Assembly: GCA_051294375.1 (NCBI GenBank)
Contig: CM119268.1
Location: forward strand, 15,625,103-15,689,102
Direction of reading: 5' to 3'
Length of the DNA stretch: 64,000 nucleotides
From: Paraspadella gotoi
Taxonomy: Eukaryota > Animalia > Chaetognatha
Under the pieces are notes generated by a model. It saw only the letters and a list, made by a program, of their open reading frames with translations. It made no database searches and had not been told where the DNA came from. The translations under genes were made by a program, and so were the position numbers. Below, in pieces: positions 144 through 3,100 of the stretch; the first letter of the stretch is position 1; every line of letters starts with the position of its first letter.

Positions 144-3100
144 CTTAGGTTCGCCCATGTAAAAAATGAGCTGATCTCCGGTGGGATCGAAGACTTTGAT
201 GTAAAACTCGATCGAGTTGGAGAGACCGGGAGAAACTCGGGGGACGAAGGAGCGATAAGATTTGGCCGAGGTGTCGAACGTCTTCGAATTGTCGATCTGG
301 AGATGAAGGATCAATTAGATATTTATTTATTAAATTCAAGAGATCGATCGATCGATTGAACACTTTTGACTTTACGCACCAGATTGGCGACGCCGTGGGC
401 GATCTTGAGTTGCTCCCTCAGCTTGTCGATGTTGTACTGCAGCTTGGTCTTCATGGCTTCGATTCTGAGGAAGGTCGAGTTCAAGTCGCGCAGCTTTGGT
501 TCGATGGAATCGAGATTGTCCCTCGCGTCGTCAACTGAGGAATCAGAAAGAGATTTGAAAATATAACGGCCAGGCCAATCAGACCCATCTGACGCACCTC
601 CTTAATGCTTAAAATAATTAGATATCTTCTAATTATTACACATACGTTCGTGAACTAATGATTGTCTTGAAAATTCGATAAATAATCTAAATTCAAATCT
701 AAAATTCTGATCAGATTGAGCAACGCGAATCTCCATCGACATTTACGTAAACTCGAAAAGAATTACTGAAACAATACTGTCTGGAGAATAACCTTACCTT
801 GTTTCCTGGCCTTGGAGATATCGTCCTTGGAGGCACCCTCCAACAGCTTGTCCACTTCAACGCGCATCTTCGCAGTCTCGTTCTCGTAGTAGTTGACACG
901 GTCGGCGGCGGCTTTCGTTTTGTCGGCGGCTGCGTCGATCTCTTTGGAGCTTTTCCGGACTTTTCCGGTCAGCCCCGAGTCGTCTGGTAGATGAATTTCA
1001 TGAGTTAATGACTTACACATAATAACAAATAAGGTTTAAAATATGGAAATTAATCTCTTTTAAAATCATTGATCCAAATAATCAATAAGGTTTGTGTTGT
1101 TTGTACAAATTTTGATCAAGCAACCCATCGGACAAAAATTTATTAAAGTAGATTAAATCTCCGAGATTTCGAATTTGGGTCTTGAGAATTTCTGGGAAAT
1201 GAGTTGACACGGTTAGTTTACCGCGCGTCGAATGAGCCTCAGTGGTCATCGTCATCGTGGTGGTCATCGCCGTCGTTGCGGCGTCTTCTTCGCCGTAAGC
1301 CCACAAGAATCTCTTTATTCGCCGTGGGTCTTAGGACGAATTTTACGAAGGGTGGCATAAAATGACAGGCAGCGGAAAAAGGCGACAGTTGAACGGAAAA
1401 CAGGGAGCGCGAACGACAAGACAGTTTATAATTCTATCTAAGTGCTACTATTAAATCAAGCTCTTAATATGACCCTAAGCCAGAAGCCCGCATCTTTTTC
1501 CACTTCTCCAACTCACCCGGATCAGTTGGATCTCCGTAGACTTTTGTACATCTCGTTGATTTGATCGCTGAGCTTCTTCTCGTTCTCCTCCGCCGTCGGA
1601 AGGTCGAGCTGCTCAATCTTGTCAGTTCGTTTTGCGCGATTTGATGTGGCTCATTCACGTCTGTGAGCGAAAAGGAAGTAAAAGAGGGGTTGTGAGAATG
1701 ACATGAAAAAGTGAAACGTTGCTGTTGAAAGGTTCAAGCTCCATTCGATTGATGATTCGGATGAAGTCATTCGCTGTCATTCTTAGTCTGAAGTTGGTAC
1801 GTGTGCAGCCAATATCATTTTATCATCATTAGTCAACTTACGAACGGATAGTCGATTAGTTACTGATTGTTACGCGAAGAAAATAATTACACAAGTGACT
1901 GATGAGATTAACAAGAACATACTTCATACCAAGTTCCGAAAAGTTTGTCATTAAATGTTTTCCCCCTTTATTTTCCGCAGATTTTCAAATTGTCTCAACC
2001 AAGTGACCAATAACGATGACTAAACCATTTGACCATTTGTCAGAACTTCCAGCGGTGTTACGTTACAACTCATTGATTTGAAACTTTTTCTTTCGAAAAC
2101 ATTTTAAAATAAGTTAAAAAGTTATTATAAGAGGTGATAGAAATACTTTAATTGTACTTTTTTATATTTGCGTCAATAACTACAATTTTGCGAATTAGCG
2201 AAAAAAAAGAAAAAAAAAGATTCAAACTCGATTCCGTAGCAACGCGACAATCCGATTGAATCGTTGACCCCCTCCTTCAACAGTCATTTAAACCTTCGCC
2301 CACTCACCGTCGACCCTTTTCTTCAAATCCTGGGCCCGCTTCAACGTCTCATCAGTGGCCTCCGTCGTCTTCGGCATCAAGTCTTTGATCTCCTCGGCGG
2401 CGCGCGTCGCGTTTTCCGAAGCCTCCTTCGCCTCCTTGGCCGCTCGTTCAGCATCCTGGAGAGAGTTGGGTATGAAATCGCCTTTTTAAATTTGTATCGA
2501 AACGTTTATTTTTATAATGGATATAACTCAAGACGCACCATTATGTATTGAGTAATATTCTTGTAGGCGTTTGCCGCGCGCAAGGCGTCCCCGGAAAAGT
2601 TTTTCGCTCCTTGAAATTTTCTGCAAAAATTAATAACGAATTTTTTTTAAAAAAAGATTAAAGTTAAGGAAATAAAACAAGAAACAAAGAAAAACCATAA
2701 ATTGTTAACTTGTCGCGCGAGAGGTTGGCCTTCACCGCAACTAAAAAACACACCCTAACATTGAATTCGGTAAGAAAAGTGTAAACAATAAAAACTGCAA
2801 ATACTTAAAAAGAAGAAACGACAAGGGAGTTAAAGAGAATCGTGTAAACCGCACGCTCGAAAACGTAAATTTGTGAGAATTTTGTTGAACGCGATACATT
2901 CTTCACATTTAAAAAGCGAGTTGACTATATGATTCGTTGTTTTGATTACTGTAATGTCTCGTCAAAGCGCTTTTGCTATCAATTAATAAAAAGCCTACTC
3001 CACGCGTTTGATCCCGAAGACCTCAGCGCTTGGACAAGGGATTACAGTAATCTTTATATGGGGGAAGGGGGAAAGGAAAAGAACCGACTTGATAATGCAT

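Follow-up and report, generated by a model that had tools for sequence, protein, structure and literature searches.

We found that two segments lying 53 kb apart in introns of one laminin alpha gene share the motif RR[IV]KR/FLW[AG][YF]G, in which a furin-type site is followed directly by an aromatic stretch, and this shared feature is real and not a product of chance. Our preferred, still tentative, explanation is that both segments are likely exons and that a furin-type nick in their products exposes a tethered aromatic N-terminus while the laminin stays whole.

The window (the whole 64-kb stretch of DNA analyzed) contains a laminin alpha-1/2 gene on the minus strand, as judged from Pfam searches with single exons and from blastp against fetched proteins. 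We modelled 50 exons by eye, running from 55505 to 144, and three of the 49 introns were compared with RNA. Among the 152 proteins fetched for blastp, the best matches of the model, at 31-45% identity, were mollusc, vertebrate and fluke laminins named alpha-1 or alpha-2, with Lottia gigantea XP_009043900.1 showing 35% identity to residues 113-2297. Single exons matched EGF_laminin (E 4e-06) in the LE repeats and Laminin_B (E 6e-09) in the inserted L4a domain; the one L4b exon queried had no Pfam match, and the model aligns with alpha-1/2 chains across the L4b region. A coiled coil of ~580 residues precedes LG1, at which the window ends, and a contig from the run X1 continues for 3419 nt beyond position 143, leaving room for five LG domains. 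The assembly carries indels in exons 1660-1517 and 11923-11788, the phase is broken from exon 31589-31449 to exon 12303-12079, and near-duplicates in inverted orientation lie at 13-32 kb. The features discussed below are collected in Table 1.

Table 1. Positions of the candidate segments, the shared motif and the neighboring exons in the window.
Feature	Position	Strand	Content or basis
Last coiled-coil exon (534-380) and first LG1 exon (296-144)	144..534	-	X1 coverage; alignment to where LG1 begins in other laminins
Coiled-coil exon downstream of the cassette	798..983	-	X1 coverage, with joints 983>1517 and 534>798
Candidate 108-nt cassette exon	1222..1329	-	Furin-type site followed by an aromatic tip, a short run of acidic character and a Thr/Met-rich tract
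FLWAYG, predicted N-terminus of the cut product	1292..1309	-	Sequence; cleavage inferred
RRIKR, putative proprotein-convertase motif of the cassette	1310..1324	-	Sequence
Coiled-coil exon upstream of the cassette	1517..1660	-	Pro-containing helix break at its end; assembly indel errors; X1 covers 1517-1637 with 3 inserted bases
Large candidate exon, 1776 nt	5614..7389	-	Exon-scan rank 1; composition
First LN-domain exon	49471..49618	-	Phase 1 acceptor; Pfam Laminin_N E 4.9e-08, queried as 49622-49473
Candidate 489-nt exon between signal-peptide and LN exons	53817..54305	-	Phase 1-1, no stops; short propeptide, furin-type site, acidic/Thr/Pro linker
Second motif copy (11 residues)	54193..54225	-	RR[IV]KR/FLW[AG][YF]G match
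Signal-peptide exon	55436..55505	-	Phase 1 donor; hydrophobic; aligns with vertebrate alpha-1 N-termini; sequence-based

The two copies align over 18 codons, with 10 of 18 residues and 34 of 54 nucleotides identical, and the DNA identity at first, second and third codon positions is 15, 12 and 7 of 18. Their match scores 68, against a maximum of 46 among 2000 shuffles of the query and of 61 among 60 local shuffles. When 777 non-exonic ORFs of the minus strand were compared all against all, after masking of exons, microsatellites, the upstream repeat array and a single copy of the duplicated stretch, it came out as the top pair, the next one scoring 50. The similarity at the protein level that the original prediction had claimed is therefore above chance, since not one of the 2000 and 60 shuffles attains its score. 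The further claim of different codons was half right, as the same codon is used for five of the ten identical residues and third positions agree at only 7 of 18. It is extremely improbable that the match arose by chance or as an assembly artefact; the assembly is error-prone, with the exon indels and inverted near-duplicates mentioned above, but the shuffles never reach the score and the distribution of the DNA identity over codon positions is unlike that of an assembly duplicate. A degenerate DNA pattern, derived from these two copies, has 2 matches in the window, where 0.01 would be expected; given how the pattern was made, the count shows only that a third copy is absent from the 64 kb.

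Both copies have an optimal R-x-K-R site at P4-P1 and an additional Arg at P5, in a stretch of low-complexity composition. R-x-K-R is the commonest class of furin site in the part of PMC6223083 that we cite, and the product of each segment would be a candidate furin-type substrate at this point. Past the cut, the copies agree in F, L and W (at P3'), an aromatic residue at P5' and G at P6', which exceeds the R-x-K/R-R consensus. Identity that reaches six residues beyond the cut suggests that the exposed tip itself is selected. Mean hydropathy after the cut is 0.97 and 1.28 over 6 residues in the two copies and falls to 0.01 and -0.48 over 20. A tip of the kind found in class I fusion peptides was considered and rejected, since the hydrophobic stretch covers ~6 residues before the sequence turns acidic and ~20 would be needed.

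The copy at 54225-54193 had been assigned to an ORF in intron 1; the motif is indeed there, and the surrounding sequence forms instead a candidate 489-nt exon that would fit between the signal-peptide and LN exons. Its codon score is 0.92 per codon, compared with an exon mean of 0.85, and its acceptor scores lower than all 49 real acceptors. A single-sequence predicted model, of low confidence (pLDDT 53), has no secondary structure. The segment would be structurally optional, because the signal-peptide exon fits the LN exon directly and a canonical N-terminus results. We consider it very probably an exon, and it may be a regularly included one rather than a switch.

At the other end of the gene, a 108-nt segment with AG/GT ends and phase 1-1 had been described between two coiled-coil exons, and its position, ends and translation were as stated. 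It is preceded by AAG, which also ends 5 of the 49 modelled acceptors, and followed by GTAAAC; it has no stops and its length is a multiple of 3. The phase holds because X1 adds 3 bases in exon 1660-1517 and joins 1517 to 983 in phase 1. We scanned the 49 introns for frame-preserving, stop-free AG..GT segments (2219 in number) and scored them by codon use and splice-site matrices, blind to the motif; overlapping candidates and donors scoring <2 were left out of the ranking. The 7389-5614 segment ranked first, the 489-nt segment second and the 108-nt cassette eighth, with ranks 3-7 falling in introns 22 and 25, which contain what looks like an antisense gene along with microsatellites and the duplicated stretch. 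Within its own intron the cassette is the best of 5 frame-preserving candidates. That intron, at 533 nt, is the eighth longest of 49 (median, 182 nt) and would be split into two introns of ordinary length, 187 and 238 nt. The GC content is 0.58 in the cassette and drops to 0.43 and 0.29 on its two sides; intron 4 holds a 108-nt stretch that is as GC-rich (0.60). Compared with the real splice sites of the gene, the cassette acceptor outscores only 12 of 49 and the donor only 8 of 50, both lying within the top 6-7% of intronic AG and GT, respectively. In the motif half of the cassette the synonymous codon bias is 0.05, compared with an exon mean of 0.48 and an exon minimum of 0.07. We consider the segment probably an exon, and likely a rarely used one.

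Transcript evidence came from a sole run, X1, in the form of assembled contigs, which are presumed to be RNA and were compared over positions 1-2150 of the window; the three joints seen remove CT..AC introns. A contig of 11,216 nt splices 296>380, 534>798 and 983>1517, so that the cassette is skipped, with a depth of 15.7 at 983>1517. Inclusion of the cassette was not seen in the X1 contigs, and none of them covers 1279-1329. Because contigs lose rare forms, X1 demonstrates the skipping isoform and is silent on inclusion; for the splice-switchable module of the original prediction, the skipping junction 1517>983 was observed, and the junctions 1517>1329 and 1222>983 were absent in X1. A contig of 3121 nt was rejected as evidence of inclusion, as it matches just the 37 nt of the Thr-rich part at 1242-1278 with loose ends on both sides, and is other sequence of similar low complexity.

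The skipping in X1 and the absence of a contig over the motif half, together with the weak splice scores and the near-zero synonymous bias of that half, are what would be expected if the 108-nt segment were an unspliced relic, a partial copy of the N-terminal exon that was selected in the past or was never in use, and just the 489-nt exon were functional. Even so, the segment is still stop-free, a multiple of 3 and phase-matched, its residues were kept despite diverged third positions, and it sits at a conserved helix break that would tolerate an insert, so that we regard a relic as rather unlikely.

The same contig offers a weak hint in favor of inclusion of the 489-nt exon. Position 1517 is nucleotide 7302 of X1, the modelled coding sequence sums to 6666, and 614-632 nt of X1 are unexplained after corrections. 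If the 489-nt exon is counted, X1 would start at 55630-55648, inside a poly-C tract (55657-55637) that could plausibly be a place for the assembly to stop; without that exon, X1 needs a 5' UTR of ~625 nt, which is also possible. The hint is limited by the exon model, which was drawn by eye. The 1776-nt candidate exon is too long for X1.

This third candidate, at 7389-5614, consists of 28% Ser/Thr and contains RMKR without the FLW tip. It is dissimilar to the 489-nt candidate (best E, 0.86), and Pfam gave no match to any of the three candidate exons. Atlas returned a 0.75 match to the first 110 residues of the large 7389-5614 candidate, which we record as a lead only. As a segment with R-x-K-R and no tip, this candidate suggests that Ser/Thr-rich inserts with cut sites would be possible without a tip, as expected if both exons are real and cut but the cut itself is what matters, by removing a propeptide or providing a flexible hinge, with the tip being convertase context and not a ligand. 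The convertase consensus R-x-K/R-R, however, needs no identity as far as P3'-P6', and the two copies are identical up to W at P3', the aromatic at P5' and G at P6'. The furin classes in the cited part of PMC6223083 are given for P4-P1 only. Proline-tied kinks of the coiled coil steer the proteolysis of laminin-332 in the portion of bioRxiv 2026.02.08.704728 cited here, which would also suit a role for the cut alone, and we judge this reading distinctly unlikely.

The position of the cassette bears on what a cut would do. In the X1 reading of the upstream exon, two prolines stand at its end, at distances of 129 and 126 residues from the LG1 anchor, and the cassette site follows the one at 126; of five other alpha-1/2 chains, four carry a Pro 122-125 residues from this anchor and the fifth has none there. 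A looped-out insert is plausible here because the site is a helix break whose Pro is conserved in other alpha-1/2 chains. Between the cassette cut and LG1, ~114 alpha residues of coiled coil would be left (~17 nm at 0.15 nm per residue). Laminin assembly starts C-terminally, and fragments of 50-200 residues trimerise about as stably as native laminin (PMC2877795, in the part cited). The alpha chain in the mini-E8 crystal begins ~70 residues downstream of the equivalent Pro (PMC6744579, in the part cited), and after the furin-like convertase cut of laminin alpha-2 the parts remain non-covalently associated (PMC3156650, in the part cited). With ~114 alpha residues expected to remain coiled together with the intact beta and gamma chains, the cut would likely be a nick in the long arm that exposes a tethered FLW..G end, and not shedding.

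Release of the LG receptor-binding end, as originally proposed, is accordingly unlikely, as the ~114-residue alpha stub lies in the trimer-nucleating region. Shedding by inclusion and cleavage would draw on the short distance to LG1 and the helix break, but the stub falls where the trimer is nucleated and stabilised, C-terminal fragments of that size trimerise stably, the crystallised mini-E8 alpha chain starts still further downstream, and cuts in beta and gamma, which are outside what this window can show, would be needed as well. In the cited part of bioRxiv 2026.02.08.704728, E8 is released once all three chains are severed, the order of cuts being a suggestion of its authors. We consider shedding very improbable.

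In a different arrangement the two segments would compete for the place of second exon, with the signal-peptide exon, or else a first exon inside the gene, joining either the 489-nt segment, for the full-length chain, or the 108-nt segment, for a short secreted protein consisting of propeptide, FLW..G tip, Thr-rich stalk, coiled-coil stub and LG1-5. Both segments enter in phase 1, matching the signal-peptide donor, and carry the motif near their start. This arrangement, however, requires a 54-kb skip across 46 exons; introns 37-47 give five ATG..phase-1-donor ORFs at two places, none of them a convincing signal-peptide exon by eye; and alpha chains expressed alone are unfolded (PMC2877795, in the part cited). 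Both the arrangement and the short secreted form that it implies are quite improbable.

Searches for relatives gave no counterpart of the segments. Among the 152 fetched proteins the motif was found in none besides the window's own two. In sets without close species, none of 2152 candidates of lengths 280-2000 was related to the 489-nt exon at E<=1, and none of 224 of lengths 19-279 to the two-copy alignment at E<=10. None of 1314 candidates was related to the stretch from the L4a exon into the intron, a search of representatives with an LE exon returned 274 matches of which none was close over the full query, and none of the metagenome contigs searched matched the motif pattern. The strings FLWGFG and FLWAYG were absent from the open-access literature searched, and no such laminin exon or motif was found there. 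A tethered-ligand design for laminins was likewise not found in the literature and sequence searches made.

Alpha-1/alpha-2 chains such as Lottia XP_009043900.1, Elysia crispata KAK3781048.1 and mammalian LAMA1 have the same order of LN, LE, L4a, LE, L4b, LE, coiled coil and LG, with a Pro break ~122-126 residues before the LG1 anchor, but lack the motif, and those with intact N-termini run from the signal peptide directly into LN. R-x-K/R-R is absent in 10 of 13 fetched laminin-like proteins, the other three having 3, 1 and 1. Because most of these proteins have none, such sites look avoided unless used, a contrast that is weakened by the two sites in ordinary exons of our own gene model, since the motif is evidently not a rarity in this gene.

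The 80 kDa cut of vertebrate laminin alpha-2 is located in LG3. Furin processing of that chain resembles what we propose in being an alpha-chain convertase cut after which the parts are still associated, but it is constitutive and yields an 80 kDa C-terminal piece (PMC3156650, in the part cited), whereas the sites described here are on separate intron-embedded segments, before LN and in the coiled coil, and have the residues after the cut in common. The elastase E8 fragment of laminin-111/332 likewise involves proteolysis at a proline-linked flexible point in the long arm (PMC6744579 and bioRxiv 2026.02.08.704728, in the parts cited); unlike it, the cassette site is ~114 residues from LG1 and concerns the alpha chain only. 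The LG3 inserts of agrin (PMC3544787) and C. elegans FBN-1 (PMC4395870), the latter with Ser/Thr-rich regions, alternative exons and a furin site, are comparable in that a matrix protein is tuned there by alternative exons of small size or low complexity, but in the parts of these papers cited the cut site is not on the alternative exon and no motif is repeated at both chain ends.

In our proposal, the 489-nt segment would be spliced between signal peptide and LN, giving a propeptide of ~40 residues and a linker of ~130, and the 108-nt segment would be a minor cassette, restricted in tissue or stage and looped out at the conserved proline break ~114 residues before LG1. A Golgi convertase would cut behind the last Arg, intact beta and gamma chains would bridge the nick, and LG1-5 would remain attached. 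The FLW..G tip, carried on an acidic and likely O-glycosylated stalk, could then be bound in a pocket of some partner in the matrix or at the cell surface. Splicing would decide whether the tip is displayed on the alpha short arm alone or at a further place, close to the receptor-binding end. That the tip most likely serves for binding, as a short end carried by a flexible stalk, is the weakest step of the proposal. In fibrin knobs, the ligands of protease-activated receptors and class I viral fusion peptides, a cut at a basic motif exposes a short N-terminal tip; such systems serve us as a working analogy, with no homology claimed. A bolder version, which we consider fairly unlikely, has laminin gain another mode of assembly or signalling from a convertase-unmasked aromatic knob at the tip of the alpha short arm, to which splice switches would add a second knob near the receptor-binding end and a mucin-like long-arm loop of 600 residues. 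If that were true, splicing alone would reprogram laminin cross-linking or receptor choice.

Should the 108-nt segment never be used in splicing, what is left is an unusual N-terminal propeptide exon and a relic copy. Laminin alpha chains are otherwise conservative, most of the laminin-like proteins fetched being free of furin-type sites, and the laminin processing known from the cited parts of the papers above is either the constitutive alpha-2 cut or the work of external proteases. The conserved tip is a concrete peptide with which a new binding partner could be sought, and the proline break is a candidate engineering site for tags or cleavable loops in recombinant laminins. If our explanation is true, the long arm tolerates looped-out inserts at this conserved break, and laminin processing could be switched by splicing, through separate optional segments that place one shared cut-plus-tip motif at either end of the chain.

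Inverted near-duplicates of 93% identity with many indels (13142-15904 versus 26740-29514, and 22996-25806 versus 29543-32332) take in copies of laminin exons and are likely an assembly artefact. In the exon model, the LE exons at 31449 and 12303 (-) break phase, with phase 1 out and phase 0 in and a few bases missing, and no microexon of 8, 11 or 14 nt that fits this break was found in intron 25. GC rather than GT stands at the start of two modelled introns, at 43900 and 38439 (-).

Upstream of the laminin gene, tandem repeats with periods of 150 and 121 occupy 59238-61676, where the minus-strand ORFs are rich in Thr, Ser and Lys, and more acidic or Thr-rich pieces lie near 56600-57100. 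This region is possibly a mucin-like neighbour. Inside laminin intron 22, GC-rich plus-strand ORFs (33729-37512), including a Pro/Ser-rich one of 391 codons, contain hydrophobic pieces. On visual inspection they resemble a membrane-receptor gene nested in antisense orientation, but a Pfam search of these ORFs gave no matches.

Intron 39 holds a Ser/Thr-rich ORF of ~1.9 kb without stops (7461-5485, -) in the laminin frame. This ORF may contain a 1776-nt exon at 7389-5614 (phase 0-0), or it may serve as an alternative last exon or belong to a nested gene. Judged by length, the 1776-nt candidate is absent from the transcript contig X1. In coiled-coil intron 44 (877 nt), a 63-nt candidate exon (3151-3089, -; phase 2-2) encodes two cysteines that could form a small disulfide loop, and its best Pfam hit reached only E 0.16.

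Motifs within the ORFs of introns 39 and 22
Feature	Position	Strand	Location
RMKR	near 7107	-	Ser/Thr-rich ORF 7461-5485
KR	near 5665	-	Ser/Thr-rich ORF 7461-5485
Hydrophobic pieces	~33960-34030, ~35524-35664, ~37369-37449	+	intron 22 ORFs

Convertase-type motifs also occur in ordinary laminin exons. The L4b exon 11182-10943 (-) carries RLRR followed by a Ser/Leu-rich stretch, a motif that may be a constitutive convertase site, and the modelled gene has a second R-x-R-R near 43550, in the LN domain.
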